A stretch of DNA of 64,000 nt from Amphiscolops sp. MND2022. Its lineage: Eukaryota. A program made the translations under genes and the position numbers. The DNA lies in assembly GCA_964187785.1 (NCBI GenBank), contig OZ076409.1, positions 25,856,001-25,920,000 on the forward strand, given 5' to 3'. The notes beneath the pieces are model-generated. The model saw only the letters and a program-made list of their open reading frames with translations, ran no database searches and was not told the DNA's origin. Positions 7,369 through 59,821 of this stretch are shown here, one piece after another (position 1 is the stretch's first letter; every line of letters starts with the position of its first letter).

Positions 7369-7582
7369 TGTTATATTCGGTTCATACCGACTTGACCTCT
7401 ACCGTAAATTCGGATACCAGCAGTCTAGAAGATAGGAGTTGTTTACCAACAAACTCTAAATAGACTCTCATACCATACATACATTTATACATTTGTTTTG
7501 GTTACAATACAGTGATACAAACATAGATCTATCTCTTTTAACAATTTCCTTTTCTCTTAGCCTATACCCTTAGAATAGAACA
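7369..7582 (+). repeat. 3' LTR of Mag-like element
   Basis: Direct repeat of 1717-1930. Confidence 0.95.
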
Positions 7583-26500: not shown

Positions 26501-29500
26501 TTGTAGGGCATTCTTCCTCAACAAAGAGTGGAAATGGTTGATTTTCATGGTCTCGGTCATTTCCGGTTGCATCTTTACCATAGTATGGAAAAGATCTTCG
26601 AAGAGTTCAAATTTCTCCGATTTGCCATCGAACGTCAATGTAGTAGTGCTGACAGGTCTTACCATCAGTGTCTGCGTTGATGATTTGTTGTTCATTCCGA
26701 CCAGCACATCTGCAAGACGCCTAATGGGGTCTGAACCATCGTTGACGTCTGTCTCCTGAACCGGAGGGACATTTTCTAAGGTTTGAATTCGTGGGGAATG
26801 GGAATTTTGTGTTTCTTCGCGGGAATGCATGGGCCGTCCAGTAAGGAATTCAGGAACCGTACGAGGGGTAGGTTTGGCTCCTGTCACCATGTCGTGACTA
26901 TTGGTCATAATGTCTTCTTCATGACCATCGTCACTAGACTGAGAATTCTCTGAATTTCTCCTAAAGTAGTCTTGTCGACTACTGGTTGCCATATTAAGCT
27001 TTGAGTTACCTTTCCAAGCGTTTTTAACGAATTTCGCTTCGGTGGTCCTGTTAAGTCCACTGGACCTCTGGTCCACTTCTTCCCGAAACACTGGATTTTG
27101 GTTGGAAACCAAGTTTCTAATATCAGGCAAAACCTTTTCAGTGATTGCTGAATTAATGACATCAACCAGCTGAGAATTAAGTTCTCTTCTCAGTTCATCA
27201 ATTTTCTTTGTAATCTCAGAATTAACGAGCCTCATAGTCTCAACCGTCGATTCACTATTTTCGTTACTGTTTGAGTTTAAAAGTGACCTGAAATCCTCAC
27301 TATTTTGCAGTGGGTCTCCTCTAGTCCCATCTGACCCTAGGTCTATTTCACCATTCCTATCAGAGTCATTTCCTAATTCATTTCTTGGATATGATCCAAG
27401 CATTACGTCTAAGTTTTCTGTATCAGACATGATGTCTAATTGCCTAGAGCGTCTTTCCTTAGCTCTTTGCTTTCTAGTAGAAGGCATTGAAGAAATATTT
27501 GCTCAGGTAAGAGTATATTCGAGCTTGTATCAAATATCCCAACTTGAACTGAGTATTCAAACAATAACAGAACGATATATCACTAAAGCAGTCTACTAAA
27601 GCGAAGGTTGACTTGTAGTCTCAAAATGATTAGAACACTGATGGTGATAGATAGCGGTGAGTTGTAGGTTTGTAATCATCAATAATCGTCAAGATTCATC
27701 CCTTGGGACTAGTGGTCCCCGTATTTATAGTCCTTGCATCATGACATGCAGTAATATGTATAGTCATGTTACTAAAATTAGCAACTTACATACTAACGTC
27801 ACTATGACGTAATGCTGTCAAACTAAATATAGACACAAGTACGGGCAAAAGGCCCTGGGAAGTTTACGTCACATGCTCCTGTAATTCTAAAATTAGCATC
27901 TCTACGTGTAATAGATCTAAAAATAGATAAAGAGGAAGGAAAATGGGGGGGAAGAGGCAGTACGCCTTTCATATTAATGACAGCAAGACTTGTGCTGAGC
28001 TCATACTTATATGCACCAATAGTATTGCACTTAGTTAAGATTAATAATCATCAAAGTAAATACACCGACAATAAGTGGACCGGCAGTCTAATATGACTTG
28101 CGTCGCCGCAAAGGCCAGCAAGTAAGTGAATAAGAAAGCTCGCATGTGATTGGCTAATTAAGGTTGCGGACTACGCGTTCGAATTGACCAACGCGGCGGA
28201 CAATTCGAACGCGTTTCCTTTACCTTGCCAGTTATCTTGATTATTACAGCTACATTTCATCGATAATTAATACATTCTGCACTACTGGTTTACATGTAGA
28301 ATACACAAGCATAAAGACGTGAATATATATATAAAGTGTACATGCGCAGCGTATAAAATCAACAAACAGAATACAATGAATGCTATATCTATGTAATGAA
28401 TACTAAAATGCAATTGGTACTACAAGTCATACTAAGACCAGTGGACCTTCGGTCCGTAATAGCATAAATTCACATTCTAATTGTTTGTGAAAAAAAATAT
28501 AAGTCATGCACTAAGTTTCCCAGCAGATCAGCGGTATACGCGGCCTAAAGTGGCAGTGTTCCTGGCATATATCTCAGGTCGTTCTCATCCACCATCACTT
28601 GGTAGCTGTTTCCATCACAGGCGGCAGCCTGCGACAATACCAATTTGAAAAACGAATGTTTTTATACGGCAAAAATGGGGAAACTGCCCTTCTTAAAAAA
28701 TGAGCATCGAATAACTATCAGTTTTGAGGAAAATTCAATCAAAACCAGCTCGCTACCACCGGAGGACACCTTAGGTTGAAAACAGTGCATACGATCTACC
28801 AACTGAGCTTGGCTGTTGATAATTTTTCAACTGTTGATAGTTTCAAACATTACAAAACAGACAAATTAACAGCGAAAACTCGGAATCCACATTTGTGCAA
28901 AACATTAGGCACTTGTGTTATGCACAATTTTTGACAATGAGATCGCCAATTAACTCCGAAGCATCAAATACAGCATGCCGACAAAAACGTTCCCATTTTT
29001 CGTAGAAAACGCAGCCTATAGCACTGGCTTTTTTAAAGACCAACGAAGTGACAGATTTTATCAGCTTGCATAGCTGAAGCTGTTGCTTCCACTAACTGCC
29101 ACACTAAGGTAACTTCTACTGCCACTTGGCATAGTGGTTAATTAGAATTTTTTGAGGTCTACCAAGCAGAAGGACATGGGTTCGAGTCGCGCCCTTGACA
29201 AATTTTTCGTGCATGTTATATTCGCACGATGACAACTATTTGAAGCAGTTCAAAGCAGCTATACGGGATGTTATAAATCGAAGAATGCCAGCTCACGGTG
29301 AAAACAAATTCTATGTTATGGGAACCTTCCTCGATCCTAACTATCAGCCCTTTCTTTTCAATGACGATCAAAAACAGTTTATAAAGTCTGATTTGATTGG
29401 TTTCGTTCAAGAAGACGCTGTTCAAGTGGCCGATTTTCCTCAAAAAAGAATTCATCCCGTTTTGAAAGAAAAATTTTCTCTCTCTGAAAAATTGAAGCTC

Positions 29501-32500
29501 CAAGCTGTAATGGAAGAGCCTAAACAATGCACTACGGCAAGCAGAATATCGCCTATTGAAAAAGAAATCAATGATTACATGGACATAGGTATTGAAGTTT
29601 CTACAGATGTTTGGGCGTATTGGCGAGAGCACAGAACTAAATATCATATTCTTTCACCGGCTGCTCGGAAGACTTTTTGCATGAAGGCAACCAATACTGC
29701 CAGTGAACGGTTGAACTCAGCAGCTGGTCGAGTCGTGTCCAGCAGAAGAGAAAGATTGTCTGCCGAACACATTGAGCAACTGGTTCTTCTGTCACAGTCT
29801 GCCGCCTGCGATGGCAACAGCTACCAGATTGTGCCTAATGAGATGAGTGACATGCCGTTGCCTGCTGGGGTGTTACCCCTATAGATGAAAGAGACTACAG
29901 GTCCGCACAAAACTACCCCGTTAAATGTGATGTCAGTATAAACTATTTTAAATAGCATTTATATTATTTTACGGACCATCGGTCCACCCGTCTAAAGTAG
30001 ACAGTCTGTCAAACTAATATCCTAGAACTGATTATTCATATCAATTAGCTGTGTATTCATTTGTATTTACGTGCTTAACCATGTAAACCAAATTACCAGT
30101 GAAGTTGATTAAAAATATCAATTTGTAAAGCAACCAAAAGATAGTAAGGAAACGCGTTCGAATTACATCACCGTCAGTATAATCGACGCGTGGTCCTTTC
30201 TGTTATTAACCAATCAGCTTTCAGAAATTTTTTCAATCGCCTGTGCTATACTGTGCTTATTCTCCTAGTTGCCAATAATCGGTCGGACCACCAGTCCGTC
30301 ACATGTAAAATACGTGTAATGTTCATGCTGAAAATCATCTGTGCAAACAATGGCTTAACTAAAGTGGTCCGCATGTATTTAGTCTTGAAAGGCGTGCCGC
30401 CATTCCCCCCCCCCACCCACTGAGCAATTTTACTCTACTTCTAAGAAATGCTGCTAAATATAAATATGACGTAGCAGTGACGTTATCCTTTGAGGGCTTT
30501 TGCCCAGATTTGTTGCTATTTTTAGATACGTGACGCTGATAAAATTTGCTTGTCATGCTTTTCCTACTATATATTGGGAGGCCGTAAGTCTTCTAAAAAC
30601 AATCTTACGCTATTCAACTCAATTCAATTACACTCTGTTCAATGACAATCTCTGATGCAAATTTGGACTTGAAGTCCGCAAATACCTTGTTTGACTTGAT
30701 TCAATATATCCCGTTTTGTTTCTGTTGCATTCATTTCAGTTGGAGTAACTTAGTACAAACAATATAGTGTTATTTGAAAGGAATCTTCTAAATGCCTTCC
30801 ACAAGAAAGCAGAAAGCAAGGGAAAAGCGATCAAGGCAATCAGACGTAATGTCTGATCTAGAAAACATGAATGTCATGTTGGGAAATTACCAAGAAAACC
30901 TATCAGACGTTGATCTGAATGAAAATGTAGAAATGGACTCAAGGTCCAACGGTACAAGGACCGACATGGTCAGGAATTGTGAGGATTTTAGAACATTATT
31001 AGCATCTGAAAATAGAAATAGGTGCGAAATACCTACAGAAGCTAATAGACTCATTTCTGAGGAGATAGCTTGCCAAATGAATAGGAAAATGGATGAACTG
31101 AGAAGGAATTTAGACACGCAAATTACAGAGTCTATTAACTCTGCAATTCATGATTCAATCCTTCCTTCTATCCAAAATTCGTTATCAGGACAAAATAGCG
31201 GGTTAGGTACAAATGTGGATTCAAGGTCCAGTAGATTAAGCAGGAACACCGAAGGTAAAAAGCACCAAAGTGCTTGGGGAGATACCCAATGTAGAGTACA
31301 ATCAAATTCAAACAATCATCCCCAATCTAGAGATAACTCATTAAGCTCATTAGACTGTAGGGATGATCGCGACATGGTGACAGGAGCCATCCCTACCCCT
31401 CGTATGGTTCCTGAGTTTCTTACTGGACGACCCACACAATCTCGAGATAACCCGCAAAGCCAAGACCCTATAGATCCTCAGTCTCCGACCATGTCACCTC
31501 AAGACCAGGAGACCATTGGTCACAATTCGGCTATAGACACTCTCACACGCCTTGCTGATGTTCTAAAGGCATGACCAATAAGCAAACCCCACAAACACTC
31601 ATGGTACGACCCGTCAGTACAACTAAACTGACCTTTGACGGGAAATCTAAAAAAATTCGAACTTTTCGAAGACCTTTTTCATACAATGATAAAAATGCAA
31701 CCACAAATGACTGAAACAATGAAAATTCACCACTTTTATTCCCTCTTACGTAAAAATGCACAAACCTTTCGTAATATCAACTCTGCCAATAGGCAGACAC
31801 TAGAAGACGTACTCGCGGTCTTCCGACGAAAGTACGTCAAGCCGGAAACTCAAGCCACTGCCAAACACAAATGGCATAAATTAGTGTTCGACCCCAACAC
31901 TATGAAACTTCCAGATTTTCTCGAAGAACTCAACCAGGGAGCAGAAAAAGCGTTTGACGAAAATGCCCAAGCAATGATAGACAGCCTTTTATACGCCAAA
32001 CTGCCCCCCAAACTCAAGCGATCGGTAAGTATGGCGCGACTTGAGAACGCCTCATATGAAGAGATCGTCACCCATCTGGAACGCGAACTAGAACTCAACG
32101 GACTTGAGGGAGGTGACGACATTACTGTACCTACAATGTCTACTGCCCCTACAGCGACACGACCGGGAACTGGCCTCCTTTCTTCCGGCATTGATCCCAA
32201 TGTCACCTGCAATTACTGCAAAAAACCTGGCCACGTCAAAGACGAATGCCGAAAACTCAAAAGAAAGGAGGAACAACGACGCAATGACGGGCAGGATACT
32301 AAAAAAGAATATCCCAAATGCCCAATTTGCGACAAAACAAACCACCCGGCGGAACGATGTTGGAAAGGCGCTGGAGCCCACCTCAAGCCCAAAAACCTCA
32401 AGATGGAAGACGAAAAACAAGACAACGCGTCTCTCAGCCAATCCGAAACCAATAACAAACAAACTACTTTTATCTTAAAAAAACCCAAAAAACTAGATTT

Positions 32501-35500
32501 GCCACGACTCCAATTTGATACAAAATTACGCGTCCGACAATATATAATTTCTGATCCCTCTACTGTATTCTACACTGAATATTATTCACCACTCAAGGGC
32601 AACTCATCAACTGACTGGCAGCAGCAAATGAGAATCACCCCTACTCAATTTTATACTTCGGACCTTAAGTCCATCGGACTTGACTCGACTTCACACTCCA
32701 TCCGTCCTCTTCCAGAAATACCAGACTATAACCCCTATTAAACAGATCCGGACTACGGCATTGACCCCTACTGGGACGTCCATCTCTACAATCAACACCA
32801 TTTATCTTTCTGTACCGACTTCACCAAACCCCAAATAAACATTGAACCTGATTGTCCGGCAACCGATGGTGCCCTCAACAGCGTTCTAAAGAACGCATCA
32901 GTCGATGTCTGGCAAACTAAACCCAATCCCTGCACTCTACCGGCACAGCACACCCAGGGACACCAATTTGACAGCTTGGGACCACAGGTCTCTTTGACTA
33001 CAGCAGTCGAAGCACGATTTACGAACACACTGGTCACCAGACAAGGTGAACCAGACTACGTACCCCTGACAACCAATCTCGGACTCGAATACAAAAGACG
33101 AATGCTCTATTTTCCAATGGATTTCGGCGAACTTACATTAGATGGCCTTGTAGACACGGGAGCACTATCTAGCGCAATCCCTGAAGCTGATCTACGTAAA
33201 ATCCGATTATTAGCCCCTCGGTCAATTGTCAAAGAGGGCCCTGCACCTAAATTCCAAATAATGGTAGCCAATGGGCAATTAGAAACTCCAAAGAGCACAG
33301 TCGAATTGAAATTTGAAGTCGGTGATATTGAATTTCACGAAATCTTTATTGTCATGGAAAAATTGACAAGCCCATTGCTTGGCCTTTCGTTTTTACAACG
33401 AAACAATACCATACTGGACATGCGTCAGGGAGTCTTAAACTTCCCATTCTTCTCCATGCAATTGAAAACGGCGGATCACAAGTACACTAATGACATGGAA
33501 CCTATCTGTACTCAGGAGGATATTACAATTCCCCCTAATGATAGACAAATAGTGACATTGGCATCCCAAATGTACGACGATACCACTGTAACCGGCATCC
33601 TCCAACCGAGCAATGCACTCACTGAGGATGGCGATGTCGCCTTTTGCGCGGCATTGGTCACACTGACCTCCGGTCAAGTGGAAATTCCGCTCAATAATTT
33701 CACTGACCACCCTTATACTCTCAAGAGAGGTTCGCACATTGCCAATTTCTCTGTCATGACTCCAGGGCAGATGAAATACGTTAAACCCATTGACCCAGTG
33801 ACCACATGGCACCTCTTACAGGATCATCCTGAAAATGCGGCTTTCTATGTCAGCAGCTTGATTAAATCTTCTAAACCAGAAGATTTTAAAGAAAGTTATT
33901 GGTTCCCTACTCCAGAGGACCCTGGGGATCCACAACAACACACACCCATTCAAAAACGGATACTGAAGGAAATACTCAATCTTCAGGAACTTGAAAAACT
34001 GAATCCTCAGGAAGACCCTGAGTCCAGACGACAATTCTTGACCAACTTTGATTGGACTGACTCGACACTGCAACCACATGAAATTGCACGCATTGAGGAC
34101 TTACTTGTCGAATTCCACGACATATTTGCGAGACACCGCTTTGACATTGGCATGAACGAGGAATTCACGGTTAAACTTACGCCAAAAGACGATTCCCCGG
34201 CCTATAGCCAAAGCTTACCGACACCTATCAACCTCAAGGAAGACATCCTCGTTGAATTAGCCTCACTACAGCGCTATGGGATTATCACAACACTCCCATT
34301 CTCCAAATATGCCGGTCCCATTTTTGCCCAAAAGAAACCAAATGGTAAATTGCGACTATTAGTCGACCTTCGGAAAAAAACAACCTTATTTCAGATGACT
34401 AAATCAACAATAATCATCCTGTCAGTACGCTAAGTGATGCAGCTCAACACATGGCAGGCAAAAAACTCTTTTGCAAACTAGATTGCTCACAGGCATATCA
34501 TTGCCTGCCAATGGCGGACCAACGGTCCATAAAGATGTTGGCGTTCAATTTCGCTAGCAGAACTTTTGCCTACCGCCGATTAGCTCAAGGTCTCAGCCGT
34601 GCTTTGTCAGCCTTTTCTAGCTTTATGCGAGAATACCTCGACAAAGTTATCAAGGCCGATCAATGCGGGCAATACGTCGATGACATTGGCATTGCCGCCA
34701 ATGATGCAGAACAACTCATGAAAAACCTCCGGGCCACTTTCCAATGCATTAGACATGCAGGCCTGAAGCTCACTATGCACAAGTGCCATTTCGGAGCAAC
34801 GGAAATCGATTTCCTGGGCCGAACGATCACTCCGGACGGCGTACGTCCACAACGACCACGAGTCCAAAATTTTCTGGAAAAAAAAACAAAATTCCCGAAA
34901 TCAAAGAAGGCATTACAGCGCTACCTGGGTTTCTTAAATTATTATAGAAATTACATTCCTAGATTATCCGAAAAACTAACACCATTTTTCAAATTGCTCA
35001 CTAAAGGCGAGAAGGTCATGGTAACCCCGGACCTATTGGACAAAATCTCTGAAATTAACAAAGCTCTTGATCGATGTTGTGAACTAGCACTTAAACAACC
35101 TTTGCCCAACAAACAAATCGCCCTGATGACTGATGCGAGCTTTACGGCGGCCGGATATGCAGTTCTCATCGAGGACGATCCGCTTGAGAAATATACATCA
35201 ACAAGGAAAGCATACGCACCGGTGGCCTACGGCTCCAAGACCTTCAGTCCCGCACAACTCAAGATGTCCATATACGCCAAAGAGTTCCTAGCAATTTTCT
35301 TCGCCTTCAAAGAAAGCGGACACATTTTCTGGGGAACACCAAAACCGGTCATTATACTAACAGACAATAAGTCGGTCACACGATTTTTTCAAACAAAAAT
35401 TATTCCACCATCCTTATGGAACGCTTGTGACTATGTTATACAATTTAATTTCACTATTGCCCACATTCCTGGCAAGAATAACACAGCCGCGGTCTACATG

Positions 35501-38500
35501 TCCCGCCTGGAAATCTCTCCAAAAGAGAAGCTGATCCTTAGAATTCGTAAAGATATACCAACAACACCAATTGAACTCCATGTCCAATCGGCCGGTGTCG
35601 CCGAGGAAGAACAAATATACTACACTGACGATGACGATGAAACTGAAGAACAAATCTGGCAACGAAAGCAACTGGCACGAGAAAACCCCTCCCATCAGTC
35701 ACCAGATATTTCACTTGAAAAATTTAGCATCCATCGCAGCAATGTGCAAAGACTCTCAGTCTGTCAAAAATTGACTAACATCAACACTGTAGCCATAGAA
35801 CAAAACAATGATGTTATCTTACAACAACTTAAACTCAAATTACAAAAAGAAGAGTACTCTGAAACAATCCTCATACAAGATATTAGATACCAACACTACC
35901 TACGTCAGCTGGACCGCCTGTCCATTCAGAACGACATCATCATCAGACAATACTATGATGAAACAGGAAACATCAAATACAACCAAATACTCTTACCGAA
36001 ACACCTGGTAAATGAACTCCTTGAATCACTCCACGGAAAGGCAAATCGACATCCAGGCATTGCCAAGATGCTCCAAGAAAAACGATGTAAATAATATTAC
36101 CCGGGAATAGCCAAATTAGTCCGCAAATGGGTAAATGGATGCGGAACGTGCATTAAAGACAAGAGAATCAACAATGAACTGATAACTCCCGAGCTACTAA
36201 ATCTACCAGAATGGACCTTAGGTCCAGAGGACGCAATGCAAATAGACCTCCTACCGAACCTCCCGCCGAGCGGAGGATATGAGAATATTATTACCGCTAT
36301 GGACGTCTTCTCACGATATTTTTTTGCCTGCCCAGTCGCTGACGCATCAGCCGCTAATACGGCCAAGGTTATTATCGACATAATGACCAAACACACCTAT
36401 TTGCCGACAACTTTGATAACCGACAAAAGATCTGCATTCACTTCGAAGTTAGTAGCTGAAATTGCGCAAATACTGGGAATTCAGATTCGTTGTGCGACGA
36501 CAAAACACCCGCAGACCATAGGGAAATTGGAGAGAACTCATGCAAGTCTCAAAACAAATCTCAAAATGGCCTCCGGGGCGTACAGACGTCAGTGGCATAA
36601 ATACTTACCTTTAGCGGTATTAAACTACAATACATCATATCATTCGACATTGGGCTGTGAGCCTTCAAGGATTTTTCATGGCCCAATACCACACAACATT
36701 CTCGATCACAAATTAGGACTCAATCCAAATCCTACCATCTTACCAACGACGGATTTCGCAGAAGAATTTCAACGACGAACGCAAATTTTACTTGATAATA
36801 CGAAGAAAAACATCATGCAATCCTACTTAAAATACAAGGAATATTACGACAGGAAGGCTAAAGCATCGCCTTTAAAACAAAATGATTATTGTTTTATACT
36901 ACAACCTATAGCTGATCACCAAGGATCAAAAATCCCATTTAAAGAATTTCGATGGATAGGCCCCTATATCATCGAACAAGTCTTGCCTAATGAAAACTAT
37001 ATTGTGCGCAAGCTCAATTCTAACAAAACACAAATTTTACATCGCATTCGTCTACGAAAATATGAACCCAACGTCCCATTACGTGATGAAAGACCCGAAG
37101 GCAACTTACAGCCGGATGAAGAAATTGTTATTCCTCAAGATGATCTCTACGTTATCACATGGGAAACCAATTTGGGCGACCTACAGGCTGATCATCGTAA
37201 TGAAACCCACAATCAAAACAACGAACAAAATACTAATAATAATGATGATACTGAAGCTGTAGAACAGCCTGACCAAATTTTAACAGATGTGGACCTTCGG
37301 TCCACTGGACGTTCGACGACTGACGAAATTTTCCCGAACCCCATATCGCAAGAAGATGATACCCAATCTTTCAATGATGACACAACCACTTCAGGGGGGA
37401 GTGATACTATCGTGCCCGAAGTATTAGAAAGCGAAAATGATGATATGATTGTAGAAAATGAAAGCCCTAGGGGAAGAAAATACAACATACGACCTAACCC
37501 CCAACTTCACTGATGAATACAGATATTAGCCAGATACAATTATTGCTGGTCCCCATTTACTATTTTGTCTCTGAGACCAATCTGACTTTAGACTCAACTA
37601 CAACACAGATACAATAATGAAAGACAAACAAAAGATACAAATAACTACAACAATGCCAAAAGTTTAGAAGTGTACATGTGTACACTATATACAATTAGTC
37701 TTTACTACCACTCTGACGTAGACTCTTTGCAGACTGATCAACTTCAGCATCGGATAATAGCTGAGTGGGACGTGCAGTTTTAGCTGAATAGCGAAGGGAC
37801 TTAGGGGGCGACTGAACTTGGGAAGCACTTGCAGATTTCTCCTTGCTGCCTCTAACGCGGAATCTATCATCAGGATCAAGTTTTGATAGAATATCAGCTC
37901 GCCCGAACTGATCCATTCCCAGCCAAGGGTCATAAGTATCGCTGAGGGCCCCCCGACCGAAAGTAGACTCTAATTCAAGAAACTCAGAAATTGAAGACTC
38001 TGAAGTAACAGCTTCCACGGAACCAGGTACGGAACTGAAATACGACTGGACTGGCAGGATTACATCAATCAGTTTGCTGGCGTAATTATCCGTATTAACT
38101 GATCCAAATTTAACTGTTGGTAAAGAGCGGAATGGTTCATCGAGGCAAAGGCAAGCCAACTTGAAACAACGTAACAATAATGGACGGGTTTGAATGGAGG
38201 TTTGCCCCATAATGAAGGTAATGGTATCCGGAATAAGTAAGGTGGGCTGGTCGAACTCGGGAAATTTGACCCTGAGTTCGTCAACGTAAGACAGATACTC
38301 CTCTTGTGCTTGAGTCTCTTCAGTGGCGACAAAGTAACCACGAAACCTAAATGACATAAACAATTTGCTAAAACACTTGGTAGCTAAGGCAAGAGGAGAT
38401 TGCAGCAGAATCTCCAAGTCGAAACACCCCAATCCTTGCGCGATTACAGTAGTAAAATCAAAGTGACTACGAGTCTCTTCGAACAAATGTGTAACGTAAC

Positions 38501-41500
38501 TGCGCGCTATTCTGCCATAATCTTCACGGGCTTTGGCAGTTAAATCTTTGAGTGTTTTCTTTTTTTCGGCCTTCTGGTCATGAAAATCTACTTCCGCTTT
38601 CAATTTGCCAGCATGGTCCAACTTGGCCCCGAACTTCAGGCGATTGAGGAAAACAGTGACGCTCAGCGCAGGGGCAACGTTTATATCTAGGTCCAGAATT
38701 GCTGCGGGATCGTTCTCCTCTGGAAGGGCGTTTGGCAGTACAATTCGTTTCGCAAGCTTGCGAAGGTACAGACACAGTTGTCTGAAAGAGTAGAATGCCC
38801 TGTCGCGTCGTCCACTGAGGCTGAGTGAGAAATTGGTCGTGTCTAAACAAAAGGATTAGTCATGCAATGTATACTTATTCCCAAAGTAAGAGACCAGTCT
38901 GGTACTAGCTCAAGTCCCTTCGGTCTTGTATCCCAGAGTAACTCCAAAGAGCATTTATACGAAAGGAAGCAAAACTACTGCATTGCAAATGACCCTATTA
39001 CCGTCATTAAGAGGCACCAATGAAGGAAGGAAATCTCAAAGCACTAACAATCACGGACTAGTTTGTGGAATAACTCGAGATGGCATGTGAAAAAATCATC
39101 GTGAATGATGGACCATTCAAGGCTCTGGGGCTGAAATGAAAAAACTTGATTACAAGACGTCTTGTGGACCAGAAGGCTAATGAGGAAGGGACTCCCAACC
39201 TGGCTGCGAACTCCTTGCATTTGTTGTTGTACGGCATGTGCTGTGAGGTACGTTGTGACAGCCTTCCAGTTCGCAATTAATTCTTGGCGGGTTGGCACAG
39301 TTACGACGTCAAGTCGACTCGACTTTATGGCCTAAATCGAAAGCAAGAAATTGTACGTGTGATTAACTTACGTCGACAACTCGATTGTTAAAGGTCCTAA
39401 CCTTGACTAATTCAGGGGTGAGTAAGGTCCACTCCAAACATAAACTTCCCCCCAGGCTGATAACTAGATAATGAAGTATAGAGAAAAAGTCTATACGACC
39501 AAACACACTGTAGCTGTCCCGATGCATTAGGCGTTTGATAGCAATATCATCAAAGGTGGTTGGTCTTTGTACCCCGTGGTTGGTAAGAGGAGAGTCATCA
39601 ACTAGCTGGACGAAGTTCTGGGTGGCGCCGGAGCAACACACTAAATCTGCTTCTGATGATATAGCAGCGAGCAAGGATAGTTCGAGCAGCGAACAGACGC
39701 AACTCAGCTGCACAACGTCCGGTAGTACGCCCGGTCCTTTGGAGGTATACTCGACAAAGTCTGTCCTTCTTCCAGAACCGAACGTGCAGGAGGAGGAACA
39801 CACCCTGAACTTCGAATTCAATTGAATATTGGCCATCAGTGAGGATGTCATTGCCAAGATTTGGGACAACTTGTTGAAATAGATGGTGAAACAACACCTA
39901 GAACAAATACAATCCGGTGATCACATTGTAGTACTTGACTTGGCAACCCTAAACTTTGAGGTAGTGCCAACTGATCCTTGACTCCAAGTCTGCTTTACCT
40001 ATGGTGACCTAACTACTATTCAATGGTAGTATTGAGTACACAACTAGACAATAAGTATGAAAGCCAGATGGAAACCACTCACCGATAATTTAGCCGTGCT
40101 CCAGTCTATGTCTGCGAAGAGAGCCTGATGATTCACAACAGTACCAGTGTGTTGCCAAAGGGCTCGGAGGACAGAAACGTCACCAGACAGTGGCAGATAG
40201 TGTCCCACGATTGAAATTTGTATTCGAGCTCGATTTTGGGGGGAAGAGGCCATGTGGTCAGCTCCAGACATAGCTTCCTCATAGAATGGGAGTTTCTCCC
40301 CTATGTCTACCAATTCGGCATTAATAAACAGGGGTAGTTCCAGTCGCGATTGGTAATGGGAAAGGATTTTCCGATCTTTCCCTCTCACCTGATGGCGCCG
40401 TTTTTTAGTGATAGGGTCTTCGATGGGCAGGTACTCGAACCTCCAACGTTGGTCTTTTCGAAGATGCCTCTCAGTCGCGTAGTGCCTCAAGATCTCTTTT
40501 GGGCCCATAGCCTTAATGGACACATTACATTTACAAATTTGACAGTAGATCTTATTGGGGTTCCATTTGGGGTCTAATGGTCCCGAAACAAATACACGTG
40601 TCCATGGCATGCTGTCAAAGTACTCTTCCTTCATAATCCTCCCAATTCTTCTCCTGTGCCTTGATGGTCTCTTAGACTTTGGTTGGACTTGTGGTGGCAA
40701 CCTCCCCTTTCCTTTTTCCCTAATGGCTTCTTGCCTTAGAGCTGCCAAAGTTTCGGTTCCAGGACTGGAACAGTCAAAGGAGACGGGGGAGCTCCCTTGT
40801 GCCAATTGATTTTCTCGAGGATAATTGGGGGGAACTGGAAGAGCTACTGAGGACTGAAAGTCCCGACTGGACTCTGGGTCACTGGTGGATCCGGGACTGC
40901 TGTCACCACCTCTCGTATCGTAAGTCATGACGGAATCACTTCCCACATCTGTATCAGTGCCAAGGTGAGACCCTTCTTGAGTATGCTTTCGGGCAGTAGT
41001 ACCACGGGGACTGTGTAAGTTCAGTCGACTAGCACGGATGACCACGCTGTTTAACATCTCGTATGATGCACGAGCACTCTCATCAGCTACTATGCGTAAT
41101 ATGCTGCTGATTTGATCTTGATTGAACGCAACAGTCATTTGTCCAGGAGAGAGGTATGTGGGGTTTGTCTCCTCAAAACACTGCTTGATGATCAGCCTAC
41201 TGGTACTAGAAAGAGGAGTGGGTCCCCTAGGTTCAGGTGGTAATGGATCACTCATGTCCTGACTTGATGTTTGGGGAAGAGAGACGTTGCCGGGTTTGGA
41301 GGGACTGTAGATGGCCTGGGCTAATGTGGATCTAGCCATAGACACATTATCGGTGTCCATTCCAGGACAAGACTCGACTTCTGTCTGAGACCGATAGTCC
41401 ATTTGTCCTTGAATATCCCCATTCTCGTATGTAGGATTTGTTGCTGGGGTAACTTCGCTTTGCTGGGCCGCCTGGCTCTCAGGTAGAGTTGTCTGAGTGG

Positions 41501-44500
41501 TCTGAGACGCAATTACTGGTGTTTCATCAGTAGCAAAATTTGAATCAATGGCTTCGGAAGTGGCTGCTTGGGCAGTAGCCTTATCCAGAAAAATGACGTC
41601 GGGAACATCAACGGGATGGCTCGCGTCTGGTATCATCTCATTAAGACCTGGAGTAATAGCGACAGGCTCACTCTCACTAGCTCTCACCACATTGGAGATT
41701 GCATTAGTGGCAGCAGTGACGTCCTCTTCTGAAATTGTGAGACACTCGATCTTCCTGGTGAAATATGTTTCGCAGCTCTCAGAATCTGTGGTAGAAGAAA
41801 GTTCGATCACGGACCTTAGGTCTGTCCGCAATTCGATGACCTCAGGCTCTTGCGGTTGCTCCAGTTGCGGCTGGTCAGTTTCCATTGCTTCGATGTTGTC
41901 TTGAGCTGGTTGGCCACTCATTTCGTTGTCTAAACGAAAAGAAATGAATTTTCGCGATCCACTTCCGCTATAAAAATCCATTCTATCGCGTTTGAAAGTC
42001 TTTCGAAAGCAAGTTTGTTATTTGTTCAAACCTATGGTTGAAAAGTTCACGATGGAGGAAGTGACTACTTAGTCAATGGGAAGCCCTGATCAAGCTCAAT
42101 ATTGACAAAATACTTTGAAAAGAACCAACCTGATGTTTGTCTATCTTGACAGGCAGAATTTTTTTCAGGCTACAACTGTCGATATGAGAAATTTAACTGT
42201 AAGTCGTAGTGGTTACTGCAGAAGTCAACAAACACACAATGATGTACTGAGCTAAGAATTCACGCCATAGTAGGTCGGACAGACTCACAGTCCAAAAGGA
42301 TGTAATTCGGCGGGCGATGCTGCTACTTTGACGAAAAGTTAAACCGGACAAGATCCAAGGCAATCCAGAGAGAATAAATCTGTCTAAGAATGCTCACAGT
42401 GTGCAATTCAAATAGATAAAAGGAGTAAAGAATTTAAATACTCAGATGAGAAATTGATGCTGTCAATCTGGTTTACAATGATTTACGTCAAACAGACTAG
42501 TAGTCAATATACACAATGCTTACTTATCACTACCACTTTCGACTGTCAAGACGGTTAATTACGTAATTATTATACTTACACTCCTACTTGAAATTTAAGG
42601 ACGTCGTGGCTACATGTACCTTAGCTTACCAACTTATCTAATATTAATTGAAGTATGTCTTTATTGTATTATGAAGTGTTATCGATTCTGCCAGAAAAGT
42701 ACACTTTCTACTTTGACCAGATCATGATCCTCATCCTTTGGTACGATCCTTTGCCTTTAGTACATTATCCCAACCATTATCTTTAGATTAGTTTCATCAC
42801 TTTCCATTACTTCATTCATTTATTCAAAATTTTCATTCAGAAAATTCATTCATTTATCTGTAGAATTTGATTGGTTAGCAAGTCGTCACTAGTTGAGGCG
42901 GACCGGTAGTCTTTGATGCTTATTGTTGATTGAAGATTAGTGTTAATAAACACTTTCACTAACAATTAACGTCACCTAACTTATAAGGGCAAGCACTTGA
43001 AAAGGTCTCAAGGGTTATCTGAACGAGCGATTACCAATATGATAAGGGTAATTAAAGAAGCAAAATCACGGGGACTCCTGAAAATGGAAATGTTTGGGAA
43101 TAATATCTTCCCGATTAACCCGCCACGGGTTTCCCCGCCGACTAAAGAGAAATCTCGGAAAATTAGTAAAATCCGAAGACTCATTCAACTCACAATTTTC
43201 ACCAGATTCAGATTAACTAATCACTTACCCGGCAAAATAGCTAAAAAATTCATCCTCAATAAACACCGCGCTGAGATGTCTCTTCAATTCTCCGTAGATG
43301 AACTAATACAGCCACTGGTGAGTCTATCTTACCTATCATCAGAGGAAGAAATGGAAGTGGACTGCCCGTCTACCGGAACTGAACAAGACCAGGATCAAGA
43401 TAGCGACATTGAAGTGATCGCTTGCTTCCGAGAGACCTCTATGCCTATCCCGAAGAAAGTTGGAGGCAGAGGTATGACGCTGGACTTGTCCAGTTGTGCT
43501 GATAACGACTCCCTAAGCAATACTCTCTGCAGTGAAGGCAGTTATTTCAATTCAGAGCCAAACAGCGAATTAATCGACCTGGTGTTAGGGTTACACCCTC
43601 CGACCGGAGAACCGACTGGCAAAGAAGGACATCCTATGGCGACCTGCAGTCTATTGGCACCAGTGCCGGATTCTCCACAATCGCCCCCGCCCCACGAGAA
43701 AGGACATCACACAGGCCCTCAACTACCACAATGGGATCATGACGAACCGCTTTGGCCTTGGATCTCGCATATCACAGGGGTCGCAGTACAAACAAGTGGC
43801 TACTGTGGCACGCAGAACTTGGTCCAACATGGAGACTGTCTAGTTTGCGGCAAATCCGCTAATATAATCCATGAGGAAGTCACCTTTGATTACTTGGAAC
43901 GGACTCACAGGGCTGGAGAATCTTACGAGACGAGACAGAGAAGACGACACGCTTTCCAAGCGGGCATGCAGGCGGGCGCTTTTGTTCTCGTCCCCCGGGG
44001 ACTGTCGCAGTCTGCCGCCTGCGATGGCAACAGCTACCAGATTGTGCCTAATGAGATGAGTGACATGCCGTTGCCTGCTGGGGTGTTACCCCTATAGATG
44101 AAAGAGACTACAGGTCCGCACAAAACTACCCCGTTAAATGTGATGTCAGTATAAACTATTTTAGTTAGCATTTATATTATTTTACGGACCATCGGTCCAC
44201 CCGTCTAAAGTAGACAGTCTGTCAAACTAGTATCCTAGAACTGATTATTCATTTCAATTAGCTGTGTATTCATTTGTATTTACGTGCTTAACCATGTAAA
44301 CCAAATTACCAGTGAATTTTATTAACAATATCAATTTGTAAGGCAACCAAAAGGTAGTAAGGAAACGCGTTCGAATTACATCACCGTCAGTATAATCGAC
44401 GCGTGGTCCTTTCTGCTATTAACCAATCAGCTTTCAGGAAGCTTTTCATTCGCTTGTGCTATACTGTGCTTATTCTTCTAGTTGCCATTAATCGGTCGGA

Positions 44501-46654
44501 CCACCAGTCCGTCACATGTAAAATACGTGTAATGTTCATGCTGAAAATCATCTTTGCAAACAATGGCTTAACTAAAGTGGTCCGCATGTATTTAGTCTTG
44601 AAAGGAGTGCCGCCATTCCCCCCACTGAGCAATTTTACTCTAGTTCTAAGAAACGTTGCTAAATATAAATATGACGTAGCAGTGACGTTATCCTTCGAGG
44701 GCTTTTGCCCAGATTTGTTGCTATTTTTAGATACGTGACGCTGATAAAATTTGCTTGTCATGCTTTTCCTACTATATATTGGGAGACCGTAAGTCTCCCA
44801 AAAACAATCTTACGCTATTCAACTCAATTCAATTACACTCTGTTCAGTGACAATCTCTGATGCAAATTTGGACTTGAAGTCCGCAAATACCTTGTTTGAC
44901 TTGATTCAAAATATCCCGTTTTGTTTCTGTTGCATTCATTTCAGTTGGAGTAACTTAGTACAAACAATATAGTGTTATTTGAAAGGAATCTTTTAAATGC
45001 CTTCCACAAGAAAGCAGAAAGCAAGGGAAAAGCGATCAAGGCAATCAGACGTAATGTCTGATCTAGAAAATATGAATGTCATGTTGGGAAATTACCAAGA
45101 CAACCAATCAGACGTTGATCTGAATGAAAATGTAGAAATGGACTCAAGGTCCAACGGTACAAGGACCGACATGGTCAGGAATTGTGAGGATTTTAGAACA
45201 TTATTAGCATCTGAAAATAGAAATAGGTGCGAAATACCTACAGAAGCTAATAGACTCATTTCTGAGGAGATAGCTTGCCAAATGAATAGGAAAATGGATG
45301 AACTGAGAAGGAATTTAGACACGCAAATTACAGAGTCTATTAACTCTGCAATTCATGATTCAATCCTTCCTTCTATCCAAAATTCGTTATCAGGACAAAA
45401 AAGCGGGTTAGGTACAAATGTGGACTCAAGGTCCAGTAGATTAAGCAGGAACACCGAAGGTAAAAAGCACCAAAGTGCTTGGGGAGATACCCAATGTAGA
45501 GTACAATCAAATTCAAACAATCATCCCCAATCTAGAGATAACTCATTAAGCTCATTAGACTGTAGGGATGATCGCGACATCTTCTTAATCAAAATCAAAA
45601 AATTTTCGTGAAATAAAAGTATGTTCTCATTTTTTAATACCGCGATGTATCGCGATATAAGACTTAAAAATATACTGTTACCGTACCGTTTTAGTAAAAT
45701 GCTATACCGCAGGTCCCTATCATTAACCATTTCGGAAACATTCAAACAATTCTAAAATCTCGGAAAATTGGTCAAACATGAACGCTTTTGGATTGTTTCT
45801 AAGTAGATGGTCCTTTCGAGCCATATTTTAATCAAAAGAATTCCCGTTTCTCTTAAAAACGTAATGCGAGTGTTTCGTTGTTAAACTTTTTCACCTTTTA
45901 ACTTTCAATTAGAATTGAAACAATTGCATGTATATGGTTGAAAAAGGCACTTCTGGAAATTTTGGCTATGTTGGAGTCATTTTTAGGTACTTTATTAACC
46001 AAACTTTTCGGATTTTTGTTTTAAAAGCGTCCCGTTTTGAGATCTTATCGAGAAGAAAACGCCGCTCAGTTAGTATCTTTCCTTCCCATATTGGAATATG
46101 AGCGGAAAATAACAATTTTTTTTTGTATTTTAGGTGCCAGTGATCTGTTTAGCATTGTATGCGTACCGATACTCTTCAATCTTGGAGATGTTCCAGCAAG
46201 TCGAGGGTTTTTCACTCTCGTGTCAATATTGAATTCTATTGGGCAACGAGCAGATGACGTCATTATTTTACTCACGATTGATTGGTTCTTTCACAGAGTG
46301 AGGACCTCGCTTAATGTTTTACACGATGCGTATGGTGCTGCAATTGTGAGTCATTTCTGCCAAAATCAGCAACTGCTGTTGTCAACAAAAGAGCCCAAAA
46401 CCAAAAACGCCGTTGAAAAAACAAAACAAACCAAAGAAGTTGAAAATATACCTGATTCTACTGTGGCTGATACTTCTCGTTCAACCTCTCCTATGATTAG
46501 TTATGAGGTAAATAATAGTTCAAAGCCTGCACAATCAGTCAAATTTCTCCCTGTTACTTTTGCAATTCCAAACGGGGATCCATGGAATGGAAGAGGCAGC
46601 TTGAAATACGTGAATAGCACTTGGTGTTGCAATTCTCCGAGTCCCATCAATTGA
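8587..46654 (+). CDS. SLC1/EAAT-family amino-acid transporter, 5'-partial; exons 8587-8753, 8825-9414, 10140-10309, 46134-46654
   Basis: GT-AG junctions with compatible phases (0, 2, 1). Motifs: DLILDKFRNIFPEN, NLLG, YSPIG, TRKNP, PVTMKC, GAILNVDG..LYE, DWFFHRVRTSLNVLHDAYGAAIV. The N-terminal TM1-3 exons were not found. Confidence 0.85.
10941..12045. mobile_element. Possible non-autonomous DNA transposon with imperfect TIRs
   Basis: CTAGGTGAATAAAAAAACGGAACGCACAAAAATTTTG at 10941 and an inverted copy ending at 12045; a related copy lies at ~855-910. Confidence 0.4.
11258..11980. repeat. Foldback-like element with inverted arrays of ~15-bp AAATTTCGTCG units
   Basis: About 6 TTTCGTCG-like units at 11258-11355 and inverted CGACGAAAT units at 11903-11980. 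Confidence 0.6.
12215..13961 (-). repeat. 3' LTR of element A
   Basis: Direct repeat of 26890-28636. Confidence 0.97.
13870..14688 (-). CDS. Accessory sense ORF-X of element A (272 aa; acidic/Pro-rich N-terminus, C-terminal CxxCGK domain), stop inside the 3' LTR
   Basis: Homologous to 43276-44097 (B) and 52949-53998 (C): MSLQF start, GDCxVCGKS, AFQAGM, SQxAAC. Confidence 0.85.
   Translation of the reverse strand: MSLQFAVEDLISPSVSLSYLSSEEEDMDVDDPQKAPDEKGYDSDIEVIACYSEAQSTRPLGIAGRAMTTEFTDDGDLTLLEELYGRSIKTDTEPPSDLVDQILGIHPPSYSRKLSQERPIAECARISPIPDTPLSPPPHEQGCNVNNAGNPWSDDDFPYQPNNAHITGIAISNSGVCGLPNQVAFGDCIVCGKSFETIREEITFNFLEQTHLVGETYNTRLRRRNAFQAGMLAGSFTVIPRGVSQAAACDGNSYQVMVDENDLRYMPGTLPL
16160..20510 (+). 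CDS. Antisense spliced accessory gene of element A (~1280 aa, BED-like zinc finger plus hAT-transposase-like body); exons 16160-18154, 18307-18792, 18865-18999, 19073-19154, 19366-20510
   Basis: Donors GTAAGT/GTAAGT/GTTGGT/GTTAGT with AG acceptors join into one open frame (3843 nt). The same junctions occur in B and C. The true start may be ATG 16220 if 16014-16211 is an intron. Confidence 0.85.
20733..25787 (-). CDS. pol: pol of element A (PR, dUTPase-like segment, RT, RNase H, IN, GPY/F), expressed by -1 frameshift
   Basis: Motifs LVDTGA, YVDD, TDAS, ADYLSR, HHCC, D-D-E and WIGPY; ORF is in the -1 frame relative to gag. Confidence 0.95.
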   Translation of the reverse strand, partial: KKLKKLVLPRLQFNGKLRIRQYIISDPSTVFYIEYYSSLKKTSSADWQQQMRNTPTQFCTSDHRSDRLTSTTDYIRSLPLIPDYNPYYIDPDYGIDPYWDAQIYNQHELQFYANFNKPQTEIEPDCPMTDRALNHTLTIALVDPWQANTNSCVLPTQEEPDTKFNSFGPQVSLTSAVEARFVNTLVTRNGEPDYVPLTTNLGLKYKRRMLYFPMDFGELTLDGLVDTGALSSAIPEADLRKIRLLAPQSIVKEGPAPNFQIMVANGQLETPKSTVELKFEVGDIEFHEIFIVMEKLTSPLIGLSFLQRNNTILDMRQGVLNFPFFSMQLKTADHKYTNVMEPICTQEDITIPPNDRHLVTLSSQMYDDTTVTGILQPSNALTEDGDIAFCAALVTLTSGQVEIHLNNFTDHPYTLKRGSHVANFSVMTPGQMKYVKPIDPVTTWHLLQDNPENAAFYVSSLIKSSKPEDFRENYWFPTPEDPGDPQQHTPIQKRILTELLNLQELEKLNPQDDPESRRRFLANFDWTDSMLQSDEITRIENLLVEFHDIFARHRFDIGMNEEFKVKLTPKDDSPAYSQSLPTPINLKEDILVELALLQRYGIITTLPFSKYASPIFAQKKPNGKLRLLVDLRKINNLISDDYINNNHPVSTLTDAAQHMAGKKLFCKLDCSQAYHCLQMADQRSIEMLAFNFASRTFAYRRLAQGLSRALSAFSSFMREYLDKVIKADQCAQYVDDIGIAANDAEQLIKNLRATFQCIREAGLKLTMHKCHFGATEIDFLGRTITPVGVRPQRPRVQNFLENTKFPKSKKALQRYLGFLNYYRNYIPRLSERLTPFFKLLKNDEKVLVTPDLLEKFTDINKALDRCCELALKQPLPNKQIALMTDASFMAAGYAVLIEDDPQEKYTSTRKAFAPVAYGSKTFSPAQLKMSIYAKEFLAIFFAFKEFGHIFWGTPKPVIILTDNKSVTRFFQTKIIPPTLWNACDYVIQFNFTIAHIPGKNNTAADYLSRLEISPKEKLILRIREDIPTTPIELHVQSAGITEEEQIFYTDDEDETEEQIWQRKKKSRDNPSNQLPDISFQKFTTHHSNYQKLPICQKLANTNTVTIEQNNDVILQQLKLKIQKEEYSETILIQDTRYQHYLRQLDRLSIQNEIITRQYYDETGTVKYNQVLLPKHLVTELLESLHGKANRHPGIAKMLQEIRSKYYYPGIAKIVRKWVNGCETCIKDKRTPNELINPELLNLPEWTLGPEDAMQIDLLPNLPPSGGYENIITAMDVFSRYLFAYPVTDASAAITAKVIIDIMTKHTYLPTTLITDKGSAFTSKLVAEIAQILGIQIKCATTKHPQTIGKLERTHASLKTNLKMASGEYRRQWHKYLPLAVLNYNTSYHSTLGCEPSRIFHGRIPYNILDHKLGLNPNPQVLPTTDFAEEFQRRSQVLIDSTKKNIMQSYLKYKEYYDRKAKAAPLKLNDYCFILQPIADHQGSKIPFREFRWIGPYIIEKVLPNDNYIVRKLNSNKTQILHRIRLRKYEPNTDLQDVRPEGNLQPDDEIVIPQDDLYVITWETNFEDFASTRRQPTYEQSTERPEITSGEDTNFDQPDQILTDVDLQSTRHDETEETLPERIMPDSDDDSIPGEETSSGGSDTIVPEVSESENDEMIVENESPRGGRYNLRPNPTPNYSEEYRY
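25769..27487 (-). CDS. gag: gag of element A (572 aa, two CCHC knuckles), starting inside the 5' LTR
   Basis: CNYCKKPGHVKDDC and CPTCGKTNHPAERC; ATG 27487 lies inside LTR 26890-28636. Confidence 0.93.
   Translation of the reverse strand: MPSTRKQRAKERRSRQLDIMSDTENLDVMLGSYPRNELGNDSDRNGEIDLGSDGTRGDPLQNSEDFRSLLNSNSNENSESTVETMRLVNSEITKKIDELRRELNSQLVDVINSAITEKVLPDIRNLVSNQNPVFREEVDQRSSGLNRTTEAKFVKNAWKGNSKLNMATSSRQDYFRRNSENSQSSDDGHEEDIMTNSHDMVTGAKPTPRTVPEFLTGRPMHSREETQNSHSPRIQTLENVPPVQETDVNDGSDPIRRLADVLVGMNNKSSTQTLMVRPVSTTTLTFDGKSEKFELFEDLFHTMVKMQPEMTETMKINHFHSLLRKNALQTFRNISTANRQTLEDVLAVFRRKYVKPESQATAKHKWHKLVFDPNTMKLPDFLEELNQGAEKAFGENAQAMIDSLLYAKLPPKLKRSVNMARLENAWYEEIVTHLERELELNGLEGGDDIPVPTMSTAPTATRPGTGLLSSGIDPNITCNYCKKPGHVKDDCRKLKRKEEQRRNDGQDTKKEYPKCPTCGKTNHPAERCWKGAGAHLKPKNLKLEDAKQDEASPGQNETKDKQSTSILKNSKN
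25772..25787 (-). promoter_or_regulatory. Two tandem A-AAA-AAC slippery heptamers before the gag stop
   Basis: Minus strand reads TTA AAA AAC TCA AAA AAC TAG; the -1 frame is open into pol. Confidence 0.8.
26872..26889 (-). promoter_or_regulatory. Primer binding site TGGTGACAGGAGCC (priming tRNA uncertain)
   Basis: TGG adjacent to the LTR CA; the first 14 nt are identical in element B (31375). Confidence 0.75.
26890..28636 (-). repeat. 5' LTR of element A
   Basis: Direct repeat of 12215-13961. Confidence 0.97.
29121..29195 (+). repeat. tRNA-like Pol III head (SINE or tRNA pseudogene fragment)
   Basis: A-box-like TGGCATAGTGG (29127) and B-box-like GGTTCGAGTC (29179); no convincing cloverleaf. 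Confidence 0.4.
29790..31374 (+). repeat. 5' LTR of element B
   Basis: TGTCAC...CGCGACA, followed by TGG PBS. Confidence 0.95.
30792..37529 (+). pseudogene. gag-pol: gag-pol of element B with several frameshifts and stops
   Basis: ORF fragments 30792-31574, 31635-32741, 32976-34433, 34451-36094 and 36236-37513 are colinear with and highly similar to A gag/pol. Confidence 0.93.
37695..41981 (-). pseudogene. Antisense spliced accessory gene of element B; exons 41981-40083, 39897-39402, 39331-39200, 39130-39049, 38842-37695; ~10-nt insertion frameshifts exon 2
   Basis: Junctions orthologous to A. Peptide YTTNFSLSLSGRRDRAFYSFRQLCLYLRKLAKR is identical to A despite many synonymous changes. Confidence 0.85.
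43276..44097 (+). CDS. Accessory sense ORF-X of element B (273 aa), stop inside the 3' LTR
   Basis: Starts at MSLQF by homology to A; intact frame. Confidence 0.85.
   Translation: MSLQFSVDELIQPLVSLSYLSSEEEMEVDCPSTGTEQDQDQDSDIEVIACFRETSMPIPKKVGGRGMTLDLSSCADNDSLSNTLCSEGSYFNSEPNSELIDLVLGLHPPTGEPTGKEGHPMATCSLLAPVPDSPQSPPPHEKGHHTGPQLPQWDHDEPLWPWISHITGVAVQTSGYCGTQNLVQHGDCLVCGKSANIIHEEVTFDYLERTHRAGESYETRQRRRHAFQAGMQAGAFVLVPRGLSQSAACDGNSYQIVPNEMSDMPLPAGVLPL
44003..45579 (+). repeat. 3' LTR of element B
   Basis: Direct repeat of 29790-31374. Confidence 0.95.
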
Positions 46655-51576: not shown

Positions 51577-52995
51577 TGTGATAATCCTCCTCATCGGATT
51601 CCTCATTAAAGATAACTGTTGCATCTAATGTTGTGTCATTTTGGTGTATAGGTTTAGCGGGATGCCTTAGATCTCTCATTTCTGAGGCTTTGAGGGGAAT
51701 ATCTTCGTTTTCAGAGTCTATACTTTCGTTATCAGATGCGTTTACTCCCATAGACCTTTTGCCCTTGGATCCCGATGGTTGCATGCTTTCTATTTCATTC
51801 ATCTCAGATCTAGGATTAGTTGTCATAGATGTGCTTTTATTGGTTTTTATCTCCATCAGAATCGCATCTAATTTGTTCTCCATCTCTTCTCTCATTTTAG
51901 TGATTCTATCGTTGTTTTTCTGTTCAAAAACCTCGGTCCAAGCTTGAATTTCGTTACTGACTTGGCTGGGTTCAACTAGTCTGGGTCTCAAATTAGTTTC
52001 ACCTAAACTTTCTTGACTTTGTAAACTAACATTAGTTAAAGTTTCATTACCTTGACTTGGAGTTTCTATGCGTACTTCGCTTGCCTCTCTCTCTCCGGGG
52101 ACGGAGTTTCTAACCTTCTGGACCTTCGATTTCTTCTATTTCCCATCTTGCTCAAGAGGAAAATTGGGTTGAAGTGCAGAAAGAATTTGAATTTATTCGT
52201 CAAGGTTGTGAAAACAATTCAGGTGAAACAAAGAGTTATCAAGGAAACTGCTTTTACAGTGTTTGGGTTTACTGTTACAGAGCAACTGTCTCTGGTCCCA
52301 GTTATATTTCAACTGAAGTAAAACTGCACTTTTACTGATGAAAAATTACAAAGCATGACACTCAATTTTAGGGTTGTCATCGATCCAAAAATACTATAGA
52401 TAGACTTACGTCAGGGTAACGTAATTCTATATATAACTTACAAATAGTAATTGCATGACTTCCAATAATCTAACTATGCTAAAGCAACAAGTCCCTGGGA
52501 AACTGCCGAATGCCGCATATACGTATGATCAAAGCTTATTAAAAGCACCAATAAAACATGTTATAAGTTAGAATCCGCATGGTACCGCATATGCGTTACC
52601 CGGATTACCGCATAATGACGCATACTCATCGTTACTAAACTCACACAGTAAAGTGTTAATGGCGTTACGTTCACAAAATTAGTTCAGAAAAGACGTCACG
52701 TTGTTCTAGCTCCGAAGTTAATGAGTGCATATGTTCATTCATGTCAACAAAATGAAAGCATCAATGTTTAAGGCACTTGTCAAAGCATAAACATCAAACT
52801 ATAAGATTAAAGAGTTTGCATGACATTTTCAAGGTATCAACTGAAAATTAAATCAACATAAATAACAAAAAGGAAGTTAAGAGTGCTCAAGAGTTTCAAG
52901 TCCTCGAGTTGTTTTAGGGTTCTTTTGGAGATGACTAAGTATTCTCGTTTAGGGTTGTTGCCCAACAGCTCCAGCACAACTGTGGGATTGTGACA
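51577..52995 (-). repeat. 3' LTR of element C (~1419 bp, inferred)
   Basis: Terminal inverted repeat TGTCACAATCC / TGTGATAATCC. The boundary falls at the same GLSQ codons of ORF-X as in A and B. Contains the frameshifted gag start (ATG 52146). Confidence 0.8.
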
Positions 52996-59650: not shown

Positions 59651-59821
59651 TCTCATCCAATACTCCAAACTTTATGTTTTTCAACTGTTTATTTATAGTT
59701 TGTTTCTTTTCTGATGCGTTCTATTTATCTTTGTATTTATTGGCAAACGCAGCAGCGGAATACTGGGAGTATAAAACCAGTAATGAGAAGATGAGAGAAT
59801 AGTTTTGACTGAAAGTTGTTT

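Follow-up and report, generated by a model that had tools for sequence, protein, structure and literature searches.

The stretch of DNA that we analysed, 64,000 nucleotides long and called the window below, contains four gypsy-type LTR elements, D, A, B, and C (Table 1). Assignment to Ty3/gypsy is based on LTRs with TG...CA ends, a target duplication, and gag followed by protease, reverse transcriptase (RT), RNase H, and integrase. The pol gene of B is interrupted. A, B, and C each carry an accessory gene, oriented antisense, that lies between pol and the 3′ LTR. On either side of A and B are exons of a host gene for a sodium:dicarboxylate symporter (8759-9637 and 46025-46654), and both elements seem to lie within a single intron of it. 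A hAT fragment lies between the two elements (29156-29884); a search for full-length relatives of this fragment found none.

Several smaller features accompany these genes. An extra sense-strand ORF precedes the 3′ LTR in A (13870-14805, minus strand, 311 codons) and in B (42970-44097, plus strand, 375 codons), both lengths being measured from stop to stop. It has a CxxC motif and no Pfam match, and a similar frame is found in C at 52949-54073. The gag frame of A (25769-27502, minus strand) starts inside the LTR. Residues 349-432 of A pol form a weak dUTPase-like segment between protease and RT that scores under the Pfam cut-off. The LTR of A contains a 42-bp near-perfect inverted repeat (13498-13539 and 28173-28214).

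Table 1. Elements, genes, and motif sites, in positions of the window.
Feature	Position	Strand	Remarks
Element D	1714-7582		plain gypsy, no accessory gene
Element A	12215..28636	-	same lineage as B; LTRs 99.9% identical; 32 strict dyads
A antisense accessory gene	16127..20510	+	finger at ~17690-17780; splicing inferred from sequence only
Dyads in A antisense gene	18180, 19022, 19312		within predicted introns
A pol	20733-25805		9 strict dyads
Element B	29790..45579	+	Ty3/gypsy-type; 5-bp target duplication; LTRs 97.3% identical; 34 strict dyads
B 5′ LTR	29790..31374	+	dyads at 29893, 29974, 30286, 30666, 30936
B pol	32478..37525	+	protease, dUTPase-like, RT, RNase H, integrase
Dyads in B pol	32661, 32980, 33665, 34014, 34354, 34517, 34854, 35239, 35751, 36214, 37292		11 sites
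B antisense accessory gene	37695..42017	-	C2H2 finger exon, helical last exon
Dyads in B antisense gene	38465, 39980, 40852, 40870, 41389, 41812		6 sites
B 3′ LTR	44003..45579	+	7 dyads
Element C	51577..64000	-	divergent lineage, no dyad; ~3.3 kb more beyond window end
C motif units CGYAT-N5-CGYAT	52576..52625	+	in C 3′ LTR
C motif array	54921..55045	+	four units, ~33-bp period; upstream of C antisense gene
C antisense accessory gene	55677..59650	+	finger exon 27% identical to that of A
Degenerate C motif array	58342..58480	+	in predicted intron of C antisense gene

The strict dyad GACY-N3-RGTC occurs 66 times in the window, always between 12221 and 45423 and always in A or B. Its spacer length stands out, with 92 occurrences of GAC-N5-GTC in the window vs. 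5 to 21 for each of 15 other lengths. When one LTR per element is counted, A has 25 dyads (1.1 expected) and B has 27 (1.0 expected). The 34 dyads of B are spread over the 5′ LTR (5), leader and gag (1), pol (11), the antisense gene (6), the region upstream of that gene (4), and the 3′ LTR (7), where the dyads at 44785 and 45423 differ by one base from the 5′ LTR copy. Spacing is fairly even: gaps shorter than 150 bp number 1 in A and 2 in B, against 5.5 and 6.4 expected, and the gap histogram, in which orthologous gaps are counted repeatedly, peaks at 300-400 bp. All 19 sites in B and 3 in A named by the initial annotation are present. One of them starts at 36214 and not at 36213, which is the preceding G, and the B list had missed 8 of the 27 sites that lie outside the 3′ LTR.

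An exhaustive scan of the whole of element C (15.7 kb, including the part past the window end) returned 0 strict and 0 relaxed sites; the initial annotation had noted the absence at the pol positions of C that it checked. Since 0.5 and 2.0 were expected, C is simply at chance level for the dyad. We fetched 20 A-type and 20 C-type loci, each set from 150 matches listed; all 20 A-type loci had 9-16 strict dyads per 10 kb, whereas the C-type loci had 0-3. Across the 1.07-Gb assembly, GGACY-N3-RGTCC was found 13,317 times vs. 1,943 for the control. We sampled 34 genomic dyads from the first 50 listed, the other 16 coming from the same clusters. Blast matches to the A/B family contained 21 of the 34; the other 13 were without a family match, 2 of these being at LTR positions of family elements. 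Chance hits are expected to make up 15%. By sequence identity the A family is young and numerous, with 34 of its 150 scored matches at least 98% identical.

Individual sites come and go. Across 15 copies of the antisense region we counted 47 different dyad positions, the commonest of which was present in 10 copies. The LTRs of A and B can be aligned in only 7 short blocks, yet each has 7 dyads. On these comparisons, dyads turn over at constant density. The favoured 5′ flanking base is G (64 of 142). Of the 28 occurrences of the reversed word GTC-N5-GAC, 20 have one half in common with a dyad, so that half-sites alternate in runs with a pitch of 8 bp. For every dyad one can also draw a short stem-loop, with a stem of 4-6 bp and a loop of 3 nt, which might act as a small RNA hairpin in packaging, export, or reverse transcription. 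We rejected this reading as very improbable. The inner pair on the sense strand (n = 71) is C-A in 16 cases, C-G in 18, T-A in 13, and T-G in 5, so that C-A mismatches outnumber U-G wobbles; the arms do not covary to other pairs, and GAC and GTC are fixed. Variation at the inner positions without regard to pairing points to recognition of double-stranded DNA.

The dyads inside pol allow the DNA signal to be separated from the protein code. Synonymous recoding of A pol left a mean of 0.92 dyads and a maximum of 5 in 2000 runs, compared with the 9 observed. In a pol alignment of 22 copies, ten strict dyads fall at recurring columns, in three reading phases. We then followed the nine A sites through 8 distant copies (~76% identical), which gave 72 comparisons, 34 of them amino-acid-identical and gap-free. 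The dyad was kept in all 34, vs. 22% of 21,315 background words. This test is not circular, since the sites were defined in A alone and were not chosen for conservation. Without the condition of amino-acid identity, retention was 0.75 against a background of 0.146; two of the nine sites are mostly not kept in strict form in the distant copies.

Three orthologous A/B pairs (25594/32661, 22043/36214, and 20965/37292) had been reported to keep the dyad around different spacers. The pairs are real, and spacers do vary more than half-sites, but they are constrained and not neutral, being identical in 28 of the 34 amino-acid-identical comparisons vs. 49% in the background. At the 22043/36214 pair the residue encoded with the dyad is Thr, compared with Asp in 24 of the 26 other copies shown; in one subfamily an Asp-to-Thr change completes a dyad.

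Common ancestry of the pol sites and the above-background conservation of spacers would both suit a combination of amino-acid constraint, codon bias, and shared descent. To that explanation we assign next to no probability. The recoding result speaks against it, as do dyads in three reading phases, in introns, and in unalignable LTRs, and complete retention where the amino acids are identical means that protein constraint does not explain the dyads. The earlier proposal of selection on DNA laid over the protein code is therefore supported by both of the checks suggested for it, synonymous divergence and a scan of C, and the two findings named as counter-evidence, a full explanation by amino-acid constraint and a comparable density in C, are both contradicted. 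From the sequence comparisons, we conclude that selection maintains the 11-bp dyad as a DNA signal at some 25-30 positions in each A/B-type element, pol included. Whatever the mechanism, a dispersed DNA signal is here clearly under selection while overlying codons for reverse transcriptase and integrase.

The initial annotation was correct that the dyad is absent from the C pol positions it checked, but it overlooked a different motif of C's own. Units of CGYAT-N5-CGYAT, with an internal period of 10 bp, are repeated in arrays with a 32-33-bp period at three places: the LTR, the region upstream of the antisense gene, and the second intron of that gene. The motif was found in 20/20 C-type loci, in 0/20 A-type loci, and in 0/13 and 0/5 loci of other clades; it is also present in L108 and L109, both of which have a C-type finger. 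Genome-wide, the counts were 5,128 vs. 65. At 7 of 8 loci of C's sister clade, intron 2 contains one related direct repeat of 10 bp, although cassettes (the antisense gene units) in that clade are only ~66% identical. In the L058 clade, intron 2 has a single operator-like site and the LTR another. L045-type families, which belong to the A-side superclade, keep a looser GAC-N5-GTC. GCC-N6-GGC is in excess in L047 (14 vs. 2.0) and L051 (10 vs. 1.9, two of the ten being outside the element). Motif scans of single elements are noisy, and a motif search of the L046 family gave no clear motif.

Apparent motifs of L043, L044, and L050 were dropped, as they came from flanking repeats around fragments without pol. 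At these three loci the antisense cassette, present in several copies with identical scores, lacks gag and most of pol and is surrounded by 88-bp tandem repeats. L037 has two cassettes. Overall, finger clades appear to map onto motif types, and the motif seems to change stepwise with the finger clade. The match between motif and accessory protein agrees for A vs. C, is suggestive for L047 and L051, and fails for L054, where the two are mismatched; independent contrasts are few.

Element D has an overlaid motif as well. In its family, which has no accessory gene, ACCGRA is present at ~2.5 times the codon null, in 12/12 copies and over the whole element. D and L150-L161 carry 42-57 of these words per 5.9 kb, mainly on the sense strand and not palindromic, and in D they are often 20-21 bp apart. 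CpG observed/expected in the D family is ~1.3.

In the antisense gene of A, GT donors at 18155, 18793, 19000, and 19155 are conserved in most relatives. The genes of A, B, and C share conserved GT donors and a C-x2-C...H-x5-H finger; the gene is presumably spliced and expressed. Across 31 finger sequences, the cysteines are invariant and the histidines at least 90% conserved; Pfam assigned 15 of the 31 to a C2H2 family other than BED-like. The gene family is large, with 7,877 first-look candidates in the genome and 895 clusters of the last exon at 50% identity. As two distant proteins, P0198 and P0228, have either a 35% match in this genome or none, the antisense gene also occurs in other species. 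No relatives were found in a metagenome scan or in a phage collection.

We searched for clues to the origin of the antisense protein. An atlas comparison gave 0.86 to ZBED5-like clusters, which is a lead only. Profile searches for hAT homology with single exons found no match, and hhalign of three single-exon profiles against 9 hAT frames of this genome returned E values of 0.24-0.72. Sequence searches of the PDB with the protein found no match, nor did domain searches for Transposase_28 (PF04195); a DUF4371 search matched nothing anywhere, controls included. A single-sequence structure model of the protein was poor, and that of the last exon had a pLDDT of 59, with no clear fold match by Foldseek or VIA. 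These profile and fold comparisons, made on single exons, gave no confirmation of a hAT-transposase origin of the protein (ZBED5/GTF2IRD2 type).

Antisense cassettes move between backbones. Among L045-L057 with L162-L169, and among L058-L062 with L110-L112, we observed pairs with pol 90-97% identical and cassettes ~65% identical. Conversely, L047 and L051 are 92% identical in the finger exon and 77% in pol. L051 combines a 45-type backbone with an old 47-type cassette (75% identical to that of L047). Two GCC-N6-GGC sites are private to L051, and 4 dyads that its backbone relatives keep upstream of the cassette are missing from it, although these are small numbers. In L054, a recent swap, a 55-type cassette 92-93% identical to that of L055 sits on a 47-type backbone with a 47-type motif. 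This family is multi-copy, 3 of 8 fetched copies being 97-99% identical. The swaps fit a cassette-driven motif that follows with a lag, again on small numbers; L054 equally shows, as far as its sequence goes, that an element does not strictly need cassette and motif to match in cis. Around the finger, the 47-type and 55-type clades have similar residues despite their different motifs. Trees of pol and of the cassette agree at the deep split, which leaves only about three or four independent contrasts, and plain inheritance of the motif with the backbone is an alternative to a cassette-driven motif.

As for mechanism, we see about an even chance that each family's own antisense-encoded protein binds its sites and keeps its copies active, by analogy with VANC or TnpA, the two plant systems described below. 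The C2H2 finger of the antisense product would bind the half-sites as a dimer, which the dyad form of the site suggests, or as a short chain that follows the alternating half-sites with their pitch of 8 bp. Cognate copies would be coated every few hundred bases and would stay open, or transcriptionally active, against host silencing. Copies gaining sites would then have an advantage in cis, and gains within pol would be accounted for in this way. Binding by the finger, the dimer state, and an activating or anti-silencing effect are all things that we infer from sequence. CpG decay is weak (0.060 vs. 0.045), the comparison being of CpG with other G/C positions only, because the substitution classes leave A/T transitions at zero by construction. 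Decay this weak gives no indication of methylation-type anti-silencing as in plants. A bolder version, somewhat less likely than not, is that a captured, disarmed DNA-transposase became a private anti-silencing factor; its code would be written along the whole retrotransposon, including pol at codon and amino-acid cost, and finger and motif would have co-diversified into mutually exclusive lock-and-key families. If true, a VANC-like system would exist beyond plants and beyond DNA transposons, and it would offer a natural library of paired fingers and motifs.

The dyad might instead be the site of a host dimeric DNA-binding factor (an activator, insulator, or export factor) recruited by this lineage, with other host factors recruited by other lineages and another role for the antisense gene. 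D makes this worth considering, since an element-wide motif in a family without an accessory gene means that such overlays can exist without a cis-encoded binder; L054, too, prospers with a mismatched cassette, and motif and backbone are confounded at deep nodes. The motif of D is strand-biased and not palindromic, however, and so may be a different thing from the dyad. The genomic excess of the dyad lies mostly in the A/B family, and motifs shift stepwise with the finger clade. TGACCY-N-RGGTCA, with T and A flanks, is the everted nuclear-receptor repeat form (the dyad favours G as its 5′ flank); it occurs 0 times in A and B, and we rejected a nuclear-receptor site on that count. We consider a host factor unlikely, while still a serious contender.

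A further possibility is that the element's own protein binds the sites to an opposite or unrelated end, repressing or limiting the family (autoregulation, copy-number control) or acting on linear cDNA in protection, nuclear import, or integration. Whole-element and fairly even coverage would suit the coating of any form of DNA, and the single intronic operator-like site of the L058 clade, with its one LTR site, also speaks for such roles. Codon and amino-acid costs at many sites would be more easily explained by a benefit in cis to the copy that bears them, however, and the young, numerous A family also speaks against such roles. We judge these roles improbable.

The preferred reading, binding by the family's own protein that keeps copies active, has two close parallels in plants. 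In the available part of the VANC report, VANC proteins of Arabidopsis VANDAL elements (Mutator-like DNA transposons) are sequence-specific anti-silencing factors for which both binding and anti-silencing were shown (PMC5735166). As there, the accessory protein is element-encoded, and a short family-specific motif is present in many copies and differs between families; the C-type arrays are, like VANC targets, tandem repeats in an accessory-gene intron and in non-coding regions (PMC5735166). The present carrier differs in being an LTR retrotransposon, and the protein in having a C2H2 finger. A-type sites also differ from those described for VANC, as they are dispersed, palindromic, outside tandem repeats, and written into pol, whereas VANC21 binds coding regions poorly since these lack the motif (PMC5735166).

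The second parallel is TnpA of Spm (KAKUSEI), presented in the available text as an element-encoded, transposase-derived regulator whose motifs are clustered, family-specific, and diversify together with the lineages (10.64898/2026.08.24.746577). A transposase with catalysis lost is proposed there as its origin, and our lead for the antisense protein points the same way. Through helix-turn-helix domains, TnpA works at both ends of its own DNA transposon, whereas the protein studied here would act for a retrotransposon and along all of it; the available text never uses the word "retrotransposon" (10.64898/2026.08.24.746577). The short dyad motif is present many times within the elements of its family and is rare elsewhere, as in VANC- and TnpA-type systems, and it is carried by an LTR retrotransposon, not by a Mutator-like or Spm DNA transposon. 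By analogy, the system of A, B, and C would work like VANC/VANDAL and TnpA/Spm but not be a member, since carrier and protein differ.

Other known systems share fewer features, as far as the accessible parts of the sources describe them. Plant gypsy antisense ORFs (Retand TRP28 type) are transposase-related and predicted to bind DNA, with function unknown (PMC11963269, PMC7264820). They have the same position and orientation and nearby family-specific tandem arrays; our gene differs in having introns and no Transposase_28/TRP28 match, and those accounts neither tie a cognate motif to the protein nor describe one within pol (PMC11963269, PMC7264820). MAIL1/MAIL2 (PMD-C) are likewise protein-motif modules with distinct motifs that oppose silencing, but they are plant host genes acting on host promoters (10.1101/2024.09.27.615353). 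Foamy virus Tas is a retroelement-encoded activator that binds the element's own DNA; it differs in being a sense-strand gene with two promoter targets and no element-wide array (PMC4929722). The available text of a meeting report mentions anti-silencing for VANC only (PMC12859917). Our searches of the open literature listed neither a description of the dyad motif nor an LTR element with such a system.

Escape from silencing without waking other elements is a problem so far answered mainly by plant DNA transposons (VANC, TnpA). This locus gives a gypsy antisense gene a named candidate target sequence, and the sister lineage with a different finger and motif is a built-in control, hence a cheap reciprocal binding test. 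The A family also occurs in close succession elsewhere in the genome: at G000:C7:62496730-62526636, three A-family finger exons lie 14,673 bp apart, which suggests a tandem array of elements with common LTRs.
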